Assembly (NCBI GenBank): GCA_964448095.1 | Contig: CAYUUT010000001.1 | Coordinates: 105,829-169,828 of the forward strand | DNA: 64,000 nt | Reading direction: 5' to 3' | From: an uncultured Candidatus Saccharibacteria bacterium | GTDB taxonomy: Bacteria > Patescibacteriota > Saccharimonadia > Saccharimonadales > UBA10212 | In this document: one piece after another, positions 49,375-56,007 of the stretch | How positions within the stretch are numbered: the first letter of the stretch is position 1 | How the letters are laid out: each line of letters opens with the position of its first letter | Translations under genes and position numbers: made by a program | Notes under the pieces: model-generated | What the model was told of the DNA's origin: nothing | What the model saw: only the letters and a program-made list of their open reading frames with translations | Databases searched by the model: none

Positions 49375-50112
49375 TTATACAAAACGAGTCACTAGGAATA
49401 TGAAGGCTACGCCTAGCAGTGTTAGGCCGAAGGAGTTGCGTGAACTGTTTTTGGAGTGGGCTTGCGGTAATAGGTTGCTGGCCGCCACATATAGAATAAG
49501 CCCGGCAAAAAACGCTAGATAAATTCCCAGAACCTTCTCGCTTAAATTAAACGCCAGGCTTAGCAGGCCACCCACTATCGGCATTAGAACCACTAGCCAC
49601 AGCCAGCCTTTGATCTGGCGTAGTTTGTTTTTATGGAAGACCATAAAAGTGGTGGTATCAAAGCCGTCTGCAAAACGGTGTCCAACTACCGCCAGGGCTA
49701 CAGCCAACCCCACCGATGAGCTGGCTTGAAAAGCTACGCCAATGCTTAGCCCGTCCATAAAACTATGCCCGGTAAGCGCGACTGCCCGTACTGTACCCAG
49801 GCGCGGATGGCGGTGCGGGCCATAGGCTTCTTCGCTCGCTTCGTGCACCGGCACCCAGCGTTCAAACGTGTGGAACAGCAAAAATCCCGTAGTCATAGCT
49901 ATCATCGGATAAACTGAATCTAGGTTGTCGTTTTTAACGATATCGAAAATTTCGGGTAGTAGATCGAACATTACCAAACCCAACACCAGTCCGGCAGTTA
50001 AGGCCAATGCACGGTTTAGCCACTTGCGGCTACGCAGAGCCGTTATACCGCCGGCCAGAGCCGCAATAGACGCGGCAACCGTAAATAAGAAAACTTCCAT
50101 GCGTCCAATCAT
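49375..50112 (-). CDS. zupT: ZIP-family divalent metal (zinc) transporter
   Basis: HSFMDGLSIGVAFQ and HRFADGF motifs. About 8 TM helices. Confidence 0.8.
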   Translation of the reverse strand: MIGRMEVFLFTVAASIAALAGGITALRSRKWLNRALALTAGLVLGLVMFDLLPEIFDIVKNDNLDSVYPMIAMTTGFLLFHTFERWVPVHEASEEAYGPHRHPRLGTVRAVALTGHSFMDGLSIGVAFQASSSVGLAVALAVVGHRFADGFDTTTFMVFHKNKLRQIKGWLWLVVLMPIVGGLLSLAFNLSEKVLGIYLAFFAGLILYVAASNLLPQAHSKNSSRNSFGLTLLGVAFIFLVTRFV

Positions 50113-50128
50113 AATTAAGCTTTATTAT

Positions 50129-50138
50129 ATTTGCAAAT
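50129..50138. promoter_or_regulatory. 10-bp perfect palindrome ATTTGCAAAT in the AT-rich divergent promoter region between the ZIP transporter and the Fur-family regulator; candidate Fur/Zur operator half-sites
   Basis: Palindrome in the 54-bp intergenic region ttatatttgcaaatttgtcgcaatt. Confidence 0.3.
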
Positions 50139-50166
50139 TTGTCGCAATTAACTGTATTATTGATAC

Positions 50167-50583
50167 ATGCATCACGATAACCTTAAGGCAATTTTAAAGA
50201 AAAACGGCTCTAGCCTAACTAAAACCCGGCGGATGGTTTTTGACCTGCTTATAGGTGAGGATCCGCAAAGCATGCAGGTACTTATCAAACGAGCCGGCGA
50301 TAAATTGGATCGGGCGACAATCTACCGCACAATAGATTTATTTGAACAATTGGGTATAGTGCACCGGCTTAACGTCGGTTGGAAATATAAAATCGAACTT
50401 AGTGACTTATTTGTTAGTCACCACCACCACTTTTATTGCACCAACTGCGGAGCGACTTTTAACCTATCGCCCGGGACTATGCTGGAGAAAATGATAGATT
50501 CAACCGCCGCTAAAGAAGGCTTGTCAACCCGTTCGCACCAGCTAGAGATTTACGGCCTGTGCAGCCAGTGCTCTAAACCCTAA
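50167..50583 (+). CDS. zur: Fur-family metalloregulator (likely Zur)
   Basis: Winged-helix N-terminus. C-terminal HHHHFYCTNCG...CSQC metal sites. Divergent from the ZIP transporter. Confidence 0.75.
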   Translation: MHHDNLKAILKKNGSSLTKTRRMVFDLLIGEDPQSMQVLIKRAGDKLDRATIYRTIDLFEQLGIVHRLNVGWKYKIELSDLFVSHHHHFYCTNCGATFNLSPGTMLEKMIDSTAAKEGLSTRSHQLEIYGLCSQCSKP

Positions 50584-52034: not shown

Positions 52035-52136
52035 CAAACCTCCCTAATTTAGACTTACAACTATCATAACTAAGTTAGAGTCAGCCACCAAATCAAAACT
52101 TACTTTAGACTGAAAAATCGGCTAAACTAAAGCGTG

Positions 52137-53318
52137 ATGGACGATCCTAAGAAAAAAGTATTAATTCTAGGTGGTGGCTTTGCCGGCATTAAAGCCGCGC
52201 TAGAGCTATCCAGAGACCTCGATTTTGAAGTCACACTGCTGTCTGACCAGTCCAGTTTCCGCTACTATCCTACGCTGTTTCACGCCGCTACCGGCGGCAA
52301 AATGTCTGCTTCGTCGATAGCGTTGGATGAAATCTTTGAAGGCAAGCCGGTAAAAATAGTTAAGGGTAGCGCTAAGTCTTTGGACGGCTCAGCTAAAAAA
52401 GTCAGCTCTGCTGGCGGCAAGGTTTACGATTACGACATTTTGATTGTCGCTCTGGGCGTGATTACTAATTATTTTGGTATCAAAGGTCTGGAAAAATACG
52501 CCTACGGTATTAAGACTCAGGACGAGGCCAGCAGACTGCGTGACCATATTCACAGGCAAATAGTCGACGACAAAAAACCGGACGTTAACTATGTGGTGAT
52601 TGGTGGTGGTCCGACCGGCGTGGAGTTGGCCGGAGCCCTGCCAACTTATATAAAGCATGTGATGCAGCGCCACAATTTGCCAGACACCCGTTTGCACATA
52701 GATTTGGTCGAAGCCGCTCCGCGGCTGATGGCCCGTATGCCCGGCAGCTATTCTTATGCCGCGCAAAAGCATCTGCGCAAACTGGGTATTAAACTCTACC
52801 TGGGCCAAACCGTAGAGGCCGAGACAGTGGACGGGCTGACGGTCAGCGGCCATTCAATCGATAGCCATACGGTCATTTGGACTGCCGGCGTCACCAACCA
52901 CCCCTTTTTGAAAGACAACAATTTTGTGCTGGATAACCATGGTAAAGCGGTGGTGGATGAATTTTTGCAAAGTGAGCATGATATTTACGTGATTGGCGAT
53001 AATGCCTCGACCCAGTATTCAGGTATGGCCCAGACCGCGCTGTATGACGCCAGTTTTGTAGCCGCGAATATCAAACGCCTGGCGGCGGGCAAAAATCCAA
53101 AAGCTTACAAGCCCAAACGACCGGTCTACGTAACGCCGGCCGGACCGCGCTGGGCAGCTGTACAGTGGGGCGGCCTGCACCTTTACGGCTGGATTGGCTG
53201 GGCGCTGCGCAGCGCCGCCGATTTAATGGGCTTTCACGATTACGAGCCCTGGTGGAAGGCCTCACAGCTATGGCTGGACGAAAACGAAGAAGAAAAGATC
53301 TGCACTATTTGCTCTTAG
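52137..53318 (+). CDS. ndh: Type II NADH:quinone oxidoreductase (NDH-2)
   Basis: Two dinucleotide folds: VLILGGGFAGIKAA and VVIGGGPTGVELAGAL. Confidence 0.75.
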   Translation: MDDPKKKVLILGGGFAGIKAALELSRDLDFEVTLLSDQSSFRYYPTLFHAATGGKMSASSIALDEIFEGKPVKIVKGSAKSLDGSAKKVSSAGGKVYDYDILIVALGVITNYFGIKGLEKYAYGIKTQDEASRLRDHIHRQIVDDKKPDVNYVVIGGGPTGVELAGALPTYIKHVMQRHNLPDTRLHIDLVEAAPRLMARMPGSYSYAAQKHLRKLGIKLYLGQTVEAETVDGLTVSGHSIDSHTVIWTAGVTNHPFLKDNNFVLDNHGKAVVDEFLQSEHDIYVIGDNASTQYSGMAQTALYDASFVAANIKRLAAGKNPKAYKPKRPVYVTPAGPRWAAVQWGGLHLYGWIGWALRSAADLMGFHDYEPWWKASQLWLDENEEEKICTICS

Positions 53319-53359: not shown

Positions 53360-54856
53360 ATGAATACTTTAGCGAAATTCTACCAGCGGCCAATGGATAT
53401 GATTGATGGGCTGCTCGATGGCCTGACGTCTTACAGACTGCTGCTGTATTTTCTTATAACGCTCCTGGGCTGGGCGACGCTAATTAGTTTTGACCATAAA
53501 TTACCCTATAACTGGCATGCGATTCTGTTGTCGGCGCTATTACTCGTAGTTGTTTGCCGGGCTTTTGGCGAGTTATTCGCCCGGGTTTTAAATATCCCCC
53601 GAAACTTTGAGTCAGATTACATCACGGCTTTGATTTTAGCTCTGATTTTGTCACCGACTACTGGCCGTGTCGGCTTCGCGGTGTTAGCTGGCGCCGGTTT
53701 TGCGGCTATCGCTTCAAAATATCTGTTGATAATCCATCGGCAGCACATTTTTAATCCGGCAGCTTTTGGCGCAGCAGTAGCCGGTATTTTATTCCATCAG
53801 TATGCCAGTTGGTGGGTTGGCACGGCCTCGCTTGCCCCGCTGGTGTTAGTTGGCGGCCTTCTAATAATGCGTAAAATGAAGCGTTTTTGGATGATAACTA
53901 TTTTTACGTTGGTCTATGGTGTGTTTTTACACCAACAATTTGACGGCGCTCCGCCGCTGCACACTATCTGGCTGGCAGCCTCCGCTACCGGTGTGATGTT
54001 CTTCGCGTTTGTTATGTTAACCGAACCACTGACTTCGCCCGACGCGTTTAGCAAATATCTGCCCTACAGTATTCTGGTCGGAGTATTGTACAGCGTAACT
54101 AAATTGCGTCTCAGCCCCGAAGAGGCTTTGCTGATTGGCAATGCCTTCGCCTACGCGCTAGTGCGCGGCAAACGCTTGCAACTTTATGCTAGCAACGCAG
54201 TCAAAGAGGCTGAAGGCATTTACAGCTTTAGCTTCGAATATCATGGCCTGTTCGATTTCAATCCTGGACAATATATGGAATGGACCCTGCCGCTGCGTCA
54301 CAGCGACAGCCGCGGCAACCGCCGCTATTTCACATTGTCATCTTCACCTACCGAGCACCAGCTGGCGTTCACTGTCCGGATACCCAAAGACTCCAGCCAC
54401 TTCAAACAGGCCCTAAAGAGCTTCCAGCCGAATGACAAAATGTTGGCCTCACATCTTGGCGGTTCATTCTTGCTGCCTAAAAACCAGCAACAAAAGTTGG
54501 CGTTTGTTGCTGGCGGCATCGGCGTCACGCCATTCCGCTCAATGATTAAATACCTAATAGATAAACGCCAGGAACGCGACGTTAGTCTGATTTACGCGGC
54601 CAATAAAGAAAGTGAGTTCGCCTTTACGGAGATTTTTGCCCAGGCAAAAAATATTGGCCTCAAGACTAACTACTTGTTGACTGCTCGGCAGCCGCTGCGG
54701 GCACCGGACATCACCGCCGCCATTCCGGATTATCATGAAAGGCTGTTTTATTTGTCCGGGCCTTACGGCTTTGTAAAATCTGCCAGAGAGTCGTTGCTAG
54801 GGGTCGGCGTTAGCGTGAAAAATATCAAATCAGACTACTTCCCGGGCTACAATTAG
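53360..54856 (+). CDS. Fusion protein: N-terminal NqrB/RnfD-like polytopic membrane domain + C-terminal NqrF/FNR-like FAD/NAD(P)H oxidoreductase domain
   Basis: YITALILALILSPTTG and HIFNPAAFGAAVAGILF match the RnfD/NqrB signatures (SALLTGLLLA...PP, NPFNPAM). MLTEPLTSP resembles the RnfD flavinylation motif (LTDPVTAST). The C-terminus carries RRYFTLSSSP (the RxYS FAD site) and GGIGVTPF (the NAD site). Confidence 0.6.
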   Translation: MNTLAKFYQRPMDMIDGLLDGLTSYRLLLYFLITLLGWATLISFDHKLPYNWHAILLSALLLVVVCRAFGELFARVLNIPRNFESDYITALILALILSPTTGRVGFAVLAGAGFAAIASKYLLIIHRQHIFNPAAFGAAVAGILFHQYASWWVGTASLAPLVLVGGLLIMRKMKRFWMITIFTLVYGVFLHQQFDGAPPLHTIWLAASATGVMFFAFVMLTEPLTSPDAFSKYLPYSILVGVLYSVTKLRLSPEEALLIGNAFAYALVRGKRLQLYASNAVKEAEGIYSFSFEYHGLFDFNPGQYMEWTLPLRHSDSRGNRRYFTLSSSPTEHQLAFTVRIPKDSSHFKQALKSFQPNDKMLASHLGGSFLLPKNQQQKLAFVAGGIGVTPFRSMIKYLIDKRQERDVSLIYAANKESEFAFTEIFAQAKNIGLKTNYLLTARQPLRAPDITAAIPDYHERLFYLSGPYGFVKSARESLLGVGVSVKNIKSDYFPGYN

Positions 54857-55513
54857 CGCCCGATAATCCTTCTGCTTTTTCATGAAATTCTCGGCCCTCA
54901 AACCCATGGCAAAACAAGCCGTGGCCAGCGCATCAGCCGTGATAATATCCGGGCCAACGACTGTCACACTTAATAGTTCATCAGCCGGCCGGCCGGTCTT
55001 TGGATTGATGATGTGCTGGCCACGTTCGTAGTTGCCGCTGGTAGCAACCGCTCCGGAAAAAATACTTAACTTGTTAAGTATTTTTTTACTATCGGTTGGA
55101 TCCTGAATGCCTATCTTCCACTCTTTGTTGCCGTCGCTTCTGGCCAGAATATCGCCGCCAATACTCATGCAAAATGTCTTAATTCCTTTTTTGTCCAGAA
55201 GCTTCCCTGCCTCAGCGATGGCCCAACCTTTGACATAGCCGGTTGGATCAAATTTGCCGGAAAAATAAGCCGAGAAATATCCATCCGTCAGTCTTTCGAA
55301 CTTGGTGCAGGCTTTTTTAATGGTTGCCATTTCCTCGCTCAAACCAACTTCTCCCCGCTGATACCTCGCCAGCTCGCTATTTTTTTTGTAAGAGCTAAAG
55401 CGTTCGTCAATTTTTCTTAATAATTTAAAGACTTCTTCGAATATGGCTTCATCCTTAGCCGCGGGGACGTCCAGGCTCACTCCTGTCCCCATAATAACTC
55501 GGTTGCGACGCAT
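54830..55513 (-). CDS. apbE: FAD:protein FMN transferase (ApbE family), short form lacking a signal peptide
   Basis: IMGTGVSL N-terminal motif, FDPTGYVKGWA, SIGGDI and AVATSGNYERGQHIINPKTG. Convergent with, and overlapping the 3' end of, the NqrB-FNR fusion gene. Confidence 0.75.
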   Translation of the reverse strand: MRRNRVIMGTGVSLDVPAAKDEAIFEEVFKLLRKIDERFSSYKKNSELARYQRGEVGLSEEMATIKKACTKFERLTDGYFSAYFSGKFDPTGYVKGWAIAEAGKLLDKKGIKTFCMSIGGDILARSDGNKEWKIGIQDPTDSKKILNKLSIFSGAVATSGNYERGQHIINPKTGRPADELLSVTVVGPDIITADALATACFAMGLRAENFMKKQKDYRALIVAREVV

Positions 55514-55518
55514 AAGTT

Positions 55519-56007
55519 TTACGAGCTAGCGGCTTTATCTAACGCTGCTTGAAGAGACTGCTCAAAGCCATAGCTGTCGCTGGTAGCTCCAGAGACAAAA
55601 TCGATATGCGCACTTTGTTTTTGCAGGGCTGTTTGCTTTAGGAGTGGCTCGGCCGCGGCTGCGATGGCACGCGAATTTCCCAAATCATTGGGCATCTGCA
55701 AGAAATTGATATCGGTTATTTTGCCACCGCTGATTACGGCCGCAACTTGGACGGTACCATAGGGCGTTTGAGCGGCAGAGCCTATATAGTTGCCGTCCTT
55801 GTAGCCTTGGCCTGAGGCAGCGTTACTTGAATTACTGGACGCCACGGTTGAGACTGCGCTGCCACCCTGATTAGTGGCTATGACTGCCGGCGTATTAGTT
55901 TTGGGACTACTTATTAGCAAAGCGCTGGTATTCCCGCTCTTATTAACGTAAAGCCCAAGGCCGCCTAAAATGGCTATAGTCATAACTACTAGGAGTGATC
56001 TTTTCAT
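55519..56007 (-). CDS. Secreted/membrane-anchored FMN-binding domain protein (FMN_bind, an ApbE substrate type)
   Basis: Signal anchor LLVVMTIAILGGLGL. YKDGNYIGSAAQTPYGTVQVAAVISGGKITDINF and a C-terminal DFVSGATSDS flavinylation motif. Confidence 0.7.
   Translation of the reverse strand: MKRSLLVVMTIAILGGLGLYVNKSGNTSALLISSPKTNTPAVIATNQGGSAVSTVASSNSSNAASGQGYKDGNYIGSAAQTPYGTVQVAAVISGGKITDINFLQMPNDLGNSRAIAAAAEPLLKQTALQKQSAHIDFVSGATSDSYGFEQSLQAALDKAASS

Follow-up and report, generated by a model that had tools for sequence, protein, structure and literature searches.

Na+-NQR is a complex of six subunits, NqrA to NqrF, in which NqrD and NqrE form a membrane pair and NqrF carries a 2Fe-2S ferredoxin domain. 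The ion pathway of Na+-NQR is formed in part by the NqrB/RnfD fold. Covalent FMN sits on a threonine of an outside loop of NqrB (T236) or RnfD (T187), and structures of Na+-NQR and Rnf place this FMN site on the outside. ApbE proteins usually carry an N-terminal lipoprotein signal.

Méheust et al. (2021, eLife 10:e66878; PMC8238504) described an NQR/RNF-like system, i.e., a fusion of PF03116 and PF00175 within an ApbE/FMN_bind cluster (ApbE and/or FMN_bind within five genes), which they detected chiefly in Actinobacteria and in the candidate phyla radiation (CPR). Huang et al. (2024, bioRxiv 2024.03.13.584918; PMC10979944) modelled it as a two-subunit complex: the NqrB/RnfD flavinylation Thr is not conserved in the membrane subunit, an NqrC/RnfG-like partner bears the flavinylation site, and in an AlphaFold-multimer model this partner occupies the vacated FMN site on the extracytosolic side. 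The system is described from genomes, and in the literature searched we found no biochemical characterisation of any member.

We analysed a locus from a member of the Saccharimonadales (CPR), within a 64-kb stretch of DNA hereafter called the window. The features relevant to the comparison are as follows:

52134..53318, + strand: NDH-2-like flavoprotein, 394 aa (PF07992, E=2.3e-41), 41 nt upstream of the fusion gene and on the same strand
53360..54856, + strand: fusion gene, probable large subunit of an NQR/RNF-like system (ORF of 498 aa; PF03116 and PF00175)
53360..54169, + strand: NqrB/RnfD-fold membrane domain, aa 1-270, about 10 helices (Pfam, Foldseek, RsxD alignment)
53795..53842, + strand: short outside loop, aa 146-161, HQYASWWVGTASLAPL, replacing the ~80-residue RnfD/RsxD loop with flavinylated Thr187
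54170..54856, + strand: FNR-type FAD/NAD(P)H-binding domain, aa 271-498, predicted to be cytosolic (Pfam, PDB profiles, Foldseek)
54830..55513, - strand: predicted ApbE-family FAD:protein FMN transferase, 227 aa, compact and leaderless (PF02424, E=7.7e-45)
55519..56007, - strand: NqrC/RnfG-type FMN_bind small subunit, 162 aa (PF04205, E=4e-7), directly upstream of apbE
55579..55602, - strand: predicted flavinylation site DFVSGATS, aa 136-143, acceptor Thr142 (motif scan)

This locus has the same make-up as the published NQR/RNF-like system. PF03116 (N-terminal) and PF00175 (C-terminal) lie on one polypeptide, FMN_bind and ApbE are adjacent, the membrane subunit no longer has the flavinylation Thr, the partner has DFVSGATS (the motif is present in 55 of 59 partners), and the host belongs to the CPR, one of the two main host groups. 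The fusion is probably the large subunit of a two-subunit, flavin-based NQR/RNF-like transmembrane electron-transfer system. A preliminary description of this DNA had taken the architecture to be undescribed and novel, a view to be given up if it proved common and already described. Both papers describe the same fusion, so the claim of novelty fails: this architecture was already published in 2021, and nothing essential sets the present locus apart. What it adds is the manner in which the site was lost (deletion of a loop of ~80 residues), a compact leaderless ApbE and, in the present clade, a convergent gene layout.

The ORF has exactly the coordinates first assigned to it, on the + strand and with 498 codons for amino acids, and the fusion is genuine. 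The region around 54250-54300 had been proposed for an artefact check, but the domain junction actually lies at aa ~268-272 (nt 54161-54175), where there is no linker and the FAD barrel continues straight from the last membrane helix. Only 2 of the 51 alignment columns around the junction contain gaps (49 homologues), and the membrane and FNR domains share a single ORF in 85 of 85 related loci, 80 of which come from the species-representative genomes that were scanned. We therefore exclude that two genes were joined by a frameshift or by an error of assembly; the identical protein on independent contigs from several sources and a confident full-length AlphaFold2 (AF2) model (pLDDT 90.8, pTM 0.85) also speak against it, and we put its probability at practically nil. 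The fusion has more than 100 full-length homologues, with 49-71% identity.

The N-terminal 270 aa match PF03116 (NQR2_RnfD_RnfE; 37.8 bits, gathering score 27.7, E=1.9e-9). When the membrane domain is modelled alone with AF2 (pLDDT 82.9) and compared with the PDB, Foldseek ranks 13 RnfD/NqrB chains first (E 2.9e-5 to 1.2e-3, TM 0.54-0.69), followed by urea transporters at E~0.5. The domain is colinear with E. coli RsxD in a MAFFT alignment, and FNPA and T(E/D)P(L/V)T motifs are common to both. At sequence level the domain resembles solved RnfD only marginally (E=0.044 and 0.012); its homology rests on Pfam and the predicted fold. A PDB profile search with the full-length alignment returned FNR-type matches only, and the marginal RnfD match (E=0.044) came from a separate membrane-domain profile. 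The TIGR01946 (RnfD) model gives the fusion 18.1 bits against a cut-off of 207.

The C-terminal ~228 aa match PF00175 (E=2.8e-8; 34.8 bits, gathering score 22), and their NAD-binding region fits the ferric-reductase-type PF08030 as well (E=1.2e-4). Profile matches in the PDB are to flavohemoprotein, FNR and the NqrF FAD domain, with flavohemoprotein reductase domains as the best solved relatives, and this part of the full-length AF2 model matches FNR-type modules. RGNRRY.T..S.P, GG.G.TPFRS and a C-terminal DYFPGY are invariant. The domain thus has the FAD barrel motif, G-G-x-G-x-x-P and C-terminal aromatic of the FNR-like superfamily, with one residue extra in the FAD motif (RRYFT) compared with the R-x-Y-(S/T) type. 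Pfam, AF2 and Foldseek therefore agree with the preliminary description that an NqrB/RnfD-like membrane domain is fused to an FAD/NADH reductase domain. Its term "NqrF-like" is accurate at the level of the FNR superfamily only, given that there is no 2Fe-2S domain (no Fer2) and that TIGR01941 (nqrF) gives 27.8 bits against a cut-off of 295, over aa 352-438 only.

The membrane domain has lost the loop that carries covalent FMN in its relatives. RsxD residues ~145-224, T187 included, are replaced by ~8 residues in the fusion, as mapped with MAFFT --add (hhalign against E. coli RsxD anchored the C-terminal helices only). The residue aligned to T187 is Ala159, with uncertain residue-level placement within the short loop. 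In the AF2 model, only a 13-residue loop lies between helices 133-145 and 159-173. No [ST]GA[ST] flavinylation motif occurs in the fusion protein or in the 85 family members examined. Because the loop with the modified Thr is deleted and the motif is missing across the family, the fusion chain is probably not covalently flavinylated, contrary to what had been proposed for it. With 9 K/R in its inside loops and 3 in the outside ones, the charge bias places aa 146-158 on the outer face and the FNR domain on the inner. Neither Cys pairs nor His pairs are conserved in the membrane domain, which suggests a flavin-only path; H129, its single invariant His, belongs to a conserved polar cluster with K120, Y121, N132 and E222.

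The predicted ApbE substrate is instead the FMN_bind partner, a conserved NqrC/RnfG-type protein that the preliminary description, with its single-chain system lacking NqrC, did not include. It has an N-terminal membrane anchor (hydrophobic aa 1-19), an S/T/N-rich linker and an FMN-binding domain. Among 59 partner proteins, 56 have the N-terminal anchor and 55 have [ST]GA[ST] ~23 residues from the C-terminus. K/R residues occur on both flanks of the anchor, so the charge bias is small; it favours N-in/C-out in 46 of the 56 anchored partners. Linkers after the anchor are uncharged, acidic (strongly so in locus L027) or Pro-rich (long in L024). BLASTP found no significant similarity between this protein and RsxG; its kinship to RnfG rests on PF04205.

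ApbE aligns to V. cholerae ApbE and keeps the GQHIINPKTGRP His and TADALAT (TAD.LAT). Its gene is convergent with the fusion gene, and the overlap at the apbE 3' end, earlier put at about 27 nt, is exactly 27 nt. The protein has no hydrophobic N-terminus, and no lipobox was found in it or in the FMN_bind protein. ApbE is compact in nearly all of the 61 loci (of 85) where it was found, and no signal peptide or lipobox occurs in any of the 61, even with the longest possible ORFs and with non-CPR metagenome-assembled genomes (MAGs) included.

Linkage was counted in a 6-kb neighbourhood of the fusion in the 85 related loci: ApbE is present in 61 and FMN_bind in 62. At least 34 loci have a same-strand fmn_bind-apbE-fusion operon, and 14, the present one among them, have the convergent layout. 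The three genes are kept together in two layouts, and their linkage has therefore survived rearrangement, in line with the tie between fusion and ApbE that had been proposed from this locus. The scan of species-representative genomes gave at least 566 matching loci for the fusion, and ~1,300 clusters at 50% identity match its membrane domain; the NQR/RNF-like family in CPR is much larger than the 127 genomes reported earlier.

The rest of the neighbourhood is less constant. The NDH-2-like gene adjoins the fusion in 15 Saccharimonadales loci and is missing beside a 71%-identical relative (L004) and in other CPR lineages; it encodes a protein with no membrane helix and is a clade-specific accessory, outside the core system. 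When neighbours were clustered in search of a conserved acceptor enzyme, no other family recurred in more than 14 of 82 loci, and the neighbourhood thus points to no particular acceptor. Six ORFs in the window are polytopic: ZIP, MFS, the fusion, CNNM, a CAP-domain protein and an ORF of 128 aa. This last ORF has no above-threshold Pfam match. Scans of the window for tRNAs and Rfam families were empty, and conserved 8-mers upstream of ndh2 and fmn_bind yielded nothing convincing.

Several other systems resemble this one in part. Na+-NQR shares the NqrB fold (Foldseek E=2.6e-4 to 7xk3_B), an NqrC-type FMN_bind partner with SGAT, an FNR-type NADH module and ApbE dependence. It differs in that the fusion system is without NqrA, NqrD, NqrE, a 2Fe-2S domain and, probably, covalent FMN in the NqrB-like domain, and has no semicircular electron path and no quinone-site evidence. 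For Rnf, RnfD is the best structural match (8rbq_D, from the A. vinelandii structures 8rbq/8ahx; E=2.9e-5, TM 0.69), and the colinear alignment with E. coli RsxD extends the likeness. However, the T187 segment of RsxD (~145-224) is replaced, and RnfA, B, C and E are absent from the window. A phmmer search of all window ORFs with E. coli RsxA-G found nothing, but this says little about absence because the RsxD query missed the fusion itself. The other subunits had been described as absent, and for NqrA, NqrD and NqrE this stands within the 64 kb of the window, whereas an NqrC-type partner is present.

Members of the NOX/FRE family have a bis-haem membrane domain of six helices (PF01794), in which two His pairs are conserved. 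They and MsrQ-like/PepSY-like PF00175 fusions (e.g., S. pneumoniae SpNOX, 8qt6) also join a membrane conduit for electrons to a C-terminal, cytosolic FNR-type dehydrogenase for NAD(P)H, and the dehydrogenase domain of the fusion matches that of SpNOX with a TM of 0.81 (normalised to the target). However, the conduit of the fusion is of the RnfD/NqrB fold, lacks conserved His pairs, is not a bis-haem domain of six helices and has no PF01794 match. The Listeria locus for flavin-based extracellular electron transfer (Ndh2, EetA/B, PplA, FmnB) likewise groups genes for an NDH-2-type protein, a transferase of the ApbE family and an FMN_bind protein with an anchor. It differs in that the fusion locus has neither EetA/B nor demethylmenaquinone genes, its membrane step is the RnfD-FNR fusion, and its NDH-2-like protein is helix-free and clade-specific.

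The domain folds and motifs are observed here, as are the missing flavinylation loop, the anchored partner with its motif and the conserved linkage of the three genes; the cofactor content, direction of electron flow, topology and acceptor of the path are inferred. The cytosolic FNR-type domain would oxidise NAD(P)H, thereby reducing its FAD. Electrons would then cross the membrane through the RnfD/NqrB-fold domain, presumably via non-covalent flavin, to the FMN that ApbE is predicted to place covalently on Thr142 of the anchored FMN_bind subunit, and from this FMN an extracytosolic acceptor would be reduced. The preliminary description's stripped-down, NAD(P)H-oxidising relative of NQR and RNF agrees with this and with the published hypothesis.

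It is difficult to see how a leaderless ApbE would flavinylate a domain that is exported. If it is the sole ApbE of these reduced genomes, its consistent form may mean that flavinylation occurs in the cytosol, before or without export, or that the FMN domain faces the cytosol; we hold this reading, in either form, to be doubtful. ApbE could modify a cytosol-facing FMN_bind subunit (N-out/C-in), making the system a membrane-bound NAD(P)H:acceptor reductase and not an electron exporter: electrons would pass from FAD to covalent FMN, to a cytoplasmic-side site of the RnfD-like domain and then to a quinone or other lipophilic acceptor. The uniform lack of an ApbE export signal, non-CPR MAGs included, is the natural argument for this, along with the K/R on both anchor flanks and the adjacent NDH-2-like gene in the present clade. 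Klebsiella offers a precedent, having cytosolic ApbEs that serve cytosolic substrates (review PMC12052999). However, in 46 of the 56 partners the flank on the N-terminal side of the anchor is the more positive one, and linkers that are S/T/N-rich, strongly acidic or long and Pro-rich are typical of exported tethers. The FMN site of NqrB/RnfD is also known to be outside, and the published AlphaFold-multimer model has the partner extracytosolic, at that vacated site (PMC10979944). We therefore consider a wholly cytosolic arrangement quite unlikely.

Another reading is an assimilatory reductase of ferric iron or another metal: the flavinylated partner would reduce extracellular Fe(III) and ZIP would import the ion under Fur-family control. 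This is a hypothesis about the acceptor, compatible with the transmembrane electron-transfer reading. It is suggested by ZIP and Fur genes 2.8-3.3 kb upstream in 16-18 Saccharimonadales loci, by the 71%-identical relative, whose Fur gene is on the same strand and just 62 nt upstream, by VIT1 iron transporters in 6 NQR/RNF-like clusters (PMC8238504) and by the PF08030 match. However, the conserved putative Fur-family operator TTGCAAATTTGTCGCAA is confined to the gap between ZIP and Fur; ndh2/fusion and fmn_bind/apbE have no upstream copy even at 3 mismatches, and the window contains no second copy, so co-regulation by Fur is not supported. ZIP and Fur are also missing from the neighbourhood of nearly all non-Saccharimonadales loci, and the ZIP substrate could be Zn or Fe, so we rate a role in metal reduction as rather unlikely. 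Lower still is the probability of a redox-driven ion pump, the "mini-NQR" of the preliminary description, in which oxidation of NAD(P)H would drive Na+ or H+ out of the cell. The membrane domain does have the fold that is part of the Na+-NQR ion pathway, but there is no NqrD/E (RnfA/E) pair with intramembrane Fe-S (none of the window's six polytopic ORFs matches PF02508) and no 2Fe-2S domain. There is also no return path to a cytosolic acceptor, and semicircular NQR/RNF coupling therefore cannot operate (PMC8238504). We regard such a pump as very improbable.

If an anchored FMN_bind protein is indeed flavinylated in the cytosol, this would be a new maturation route. Under either outcome, cytosolic flavinylation or a cytosol-facing FMN domain, the published model of "extracytosolic electron export" by the NQR/RNF-like system would fall. 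With just two subunits and ApbE, the system lends itself to study by heterologous expression. The genomes of CPR/Patescibacteria are very small and encode few recognisable redox enzymes. Because it is conserved in hundreds of CPR species, the three-gene module is probably one of their main routes for disposing of NAD(P)H electrons or for reduction at the cell surface.

The preliminary description had read one gene as a fusion of a membrane domain and a reductase domain, and its boundaries proved exact:

53360..54856, + strand: fusion ORF, 498 aa (ORF call)

The architecture was read correctly and is genuine, with both Pfam domains on one ORF. The N-terminal part matches PF03116 (NQR2_RnfD_RnfE) at 35.3 bits for the whole protein and 37.8 bits for aa 1-270, exceeding the 27.7-bit gathering score in both cases, and the C-terminal part matches PF00175 (NAD_binding_1) and, more weakly, PF08030 (ferric-reductase-type). 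NCBIfam has no dedicated model for the fusion, which falls short of the nqrF equivalog (27.8 bits vs a cut-off of 295) and the rnfD equivalog (18.1 bits vs 207); over the last ~220 residues it is similar to the flavohemoprotein, Hcr and BenC reductase modules. The gene is not the product of a frameshift or assembly join, since each of the 85 loci examined has both domains on a single ORF, an alignment of 49 homologues shows hardly any gaps at the domain junction (aa ~268-272, nt 54161-54175), and a 100% identical protein is present in several public sources. In the AlphaFold2 model and the alignment, the first strand of the FAD barrel continues directly from the last membrane helix.

By sequence alone, the membrane domain is only marginally similar to solved RnfD, so the RnfD/NqrB homology call rests on Pfam and the predicted fold. 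The full-length AlphaFold2 model (pLDDT 90.8, pTM 0.85) gave Foldseek matches to FNR-type modules, i.e., flavohemoglobins, the SpNOX dehydrogenase domain and the NqrF FAD domain. When aa 1-272 were modelled separately (pLDDT 82.9), the 13 best PDB matches were all RnfD/NqrB chains (8rbq_D, E=2.9e-5, TM 0.69; 7xk3_B, E=2.6e-4), followed by urea transporters at E of about 0.5. The FNR hallmarks RGNRRY.T..S.P, GG.G.TPFRS and C-terminal DYFPGY are invariant across the family. No conserved Cys or His pairs occur in the membrane domain in the family alignment, which argues against Fe-S or bis-haem cofactors.

The gene fits every testable element of the published definition of NQR/RNF-like systems (Méheust et al. 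2021) and is therefore of an already described kind, genuine though its architecture is. The claim of novelty thus falls, the same exact protein also being in public databases, and the interpretation as a whole is supported in part. Huang et al. (2024) presented an AlphaFold-multimer model of a two-subunit NQR/RNF-like complex from Ktedonobacter racemifer; no biochemical study of any member was found in the literature searched.

Two further genes accompany the fusion:

54830..55513, - strand: ApbE, compact, 227 aa (Pfam match)
55519..56007, - strand: FMN_bind protein, 162 aa, directly upstream of apbE (PF04205)

The apbE gene is convergent with the fusion, and the overlap, put earlier at about 27 nt, is exactly 27 nt at the fusion's 3' end. 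NqrC and RnfG contain an FMN_bind domain. The same domain is present here, so the preliminary description was wrong that there is no NqrC equivalent. This partner begins with a hydrophobic anchor, continues through an S/T/N-rich linker free of charged residues and bears a canonical DFVSGATS site. The anchor is present in 56 of 59 partner proteins and the flavinylation motif in 55, some 23 residues before the C-terminus; in 46 of the 56 anchored proteins, the N-flank of the anchor carries more positive charge than the C-flank. Public gene calls give both genes shorter starts (FMN_bind 154 aa, ApbE 220 aa); family comparison favours the longer ones, in which the FMN_bind anchor starts MKRSLLVV... 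and ApbE starts MRRNRVIMGT....

The fusion chain itself had been proposed to carry covalent flavin, and this was not borne out. Our reference for loop mapping was E. coli RsxD (NC_000913.3), aligned to the fusion family; its Thr187, in the context DGISQATPLD, is annotated as a covalent-FMN carrier by similarity to V. cholerae RnfD. Fusion aa 75-153 are colinear with RsxD 67-144 (FNPA motif in common) and aa 162-267 with RsxD 225-340 (T(D/E)P.T in common), and RsxD's outside loop 145-224, which bears T187, is reduced in the fusion to about 8 residues, GTASLAPL. In the AlphaFold2 model, the loop at that point has only 13 residues. Ala159 aligns to T187, at a position variable within the family, and the membrane half contains an [ST]GA[ST] motif in none of the 85 family members. 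With the loop deleted and the motif missing, the fusion chain is very unlikely, from its sequence, to be an ApbE substrate.

Within 6 kb of the fusion, ApbE is encoded in 61 of 85 loci and FMN_bind in 62. At least 34 loci have a same-strand fmn_bind-apbE-fusion operon with apbE overlapping the fusion start, and 14, the window's clade, are convergent and overlap 3' to 3'; tight overlap was evidently kept through an inversion. That the three-gene linkage survives rearrangement is a good argument for the genes acting as a unit.

Solved ApbEs have about 325-370 aa, whereas the fusion-linked enzymes are shorter, mostly about 230-310 aa outside the window even as longest possible ORFs. Most start at the first core strand (M-R/K-x-x-x-x-I-M-G-M/T-P), and a minority have an F-E-A-I-G-T type of start. 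The catalytic core of the window's ApbE is intact in sequence. At the 61 loci with ApbE, non-CPR MAGs included, even the longest possible ApbE ORFs show neither a signal peptide nor a lipobox. A leaderless ApbE is at odds with its predicted substrate, an FMN_bind protein with a predicted N-in/C-out anchor. Flavinylation could precede export, or the partner's FMN_bind domain could face the cytosol; cytosolic ApbEs are known, with cytosolic substrates (PMC12052999). Alternatively, ApbE could be exported unconventionally, or a second ApbE could be encoded elsewhere in the genome. In the published survey, a predicted signal peptide was required for a cluster to be retained, and leaderless ApbE is not taken up.

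The folds, motifs, loop deletion, partner site and anchor, and conserved three-gene linkage are shown here. In the inferred mechanism, NAD(P)H would reduce FAD in the cytosolic FNR domain, and electrons would cross the membrane by way of flavin bound non-covalently in the RnfD-like domain, reach the covalent FMN on partner Thr142 and pass to an acceptor outside the cell. The charge bias of the fusion's loops (9 K/R inside vs 3 outside) fits a cytosolic FNR domain and an exterior position for loop 146-158. Synteny points to no acceptor, every other gene family being limited to 14 or fewer of 82 loci. An ion pump is unlikely because NqrD/E-type subunits are missing from the window and there is no return electron path. 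Metal reduction is hinted at in Saccharimonadales by the ZIP, Fur, MFS and NDH-2-like genes beside the module, but no copy of the conserved, putative ZIP-Fur operator lies close to the flavin genes:

49375..50112, - strand: ZIP transporter gene
50131-50147: 17-bp imperfect palindrome TTGCAAATTTGTCGCAA, ZIP-Fur divergent promoter region
50167..50583, + strand: Fur-family regulator gene
52134-53318, + strand: NDH-2-like flavoprotein gene, 41 nt upstream of the fusion (PF07992)

The palindrome is conserved, exactly or almost so, at 10 of 11 orthologous Saccharimonadales loci, where the encoded proteins share only about 50% identity, and occurs once in the 64-kb window with up to 3 mismatches allowed; it is probably the operator through which ZIP is regulated and the Fur-family gene regulates itself. 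The NDH-2-like protein ends in ...KICTICS and lacks a membrane helix. Its gene adjoins the fusion in 15 Saccharimonadales loci and is absent from related loci in other CPR lineages and from L004, whose fusion is 71% identical. The NDH-2-like protein and the fusion, both NAD(P)H-oxidising flavoenzymes, may share a transcript. Across the whole window (1-64000), there were no tRNA genes and no Rfam families at gathering score.

More than 100 full-length homologues (about 497-510 aa, 49-71% identity) were found, those named being almost all Candidatus Saccharimonadales or Saccharibacteria. The membrane-domain query matched 1,318 clusters (50% identity level) at E<=1e-3 and 691 at E<=1e-10, with 97 of the best 150 having fusion-sized members (435-542 aa), and a scan of species-representative genomes gave at least 566 loci. 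Hosts among the matches listed were Saccharibacteria, Paceibacterota, Kaiser-, Adler-, Doudna-, Gracili-, Peregrini-, Levy- and Daviesbacteria, plus a few MAGs labelled Alpha- or Gammaproteobacteria or Spirochaetia. Seven loci (L024, L044, L062, L075, L079, L021 and L031) are in MAGs labelled Alphaproteobacteria (Devosia, Phyllobacterium), Gammaproteobacteria or Spirochaetia, with fusions about 40% identical to CPR proteins; these could reflect horizontal transfer or mis-binned CPR contigs. The value of the finding lies in the wide spread of this module across the CPR and in the puzzle of where its ApbE acts.
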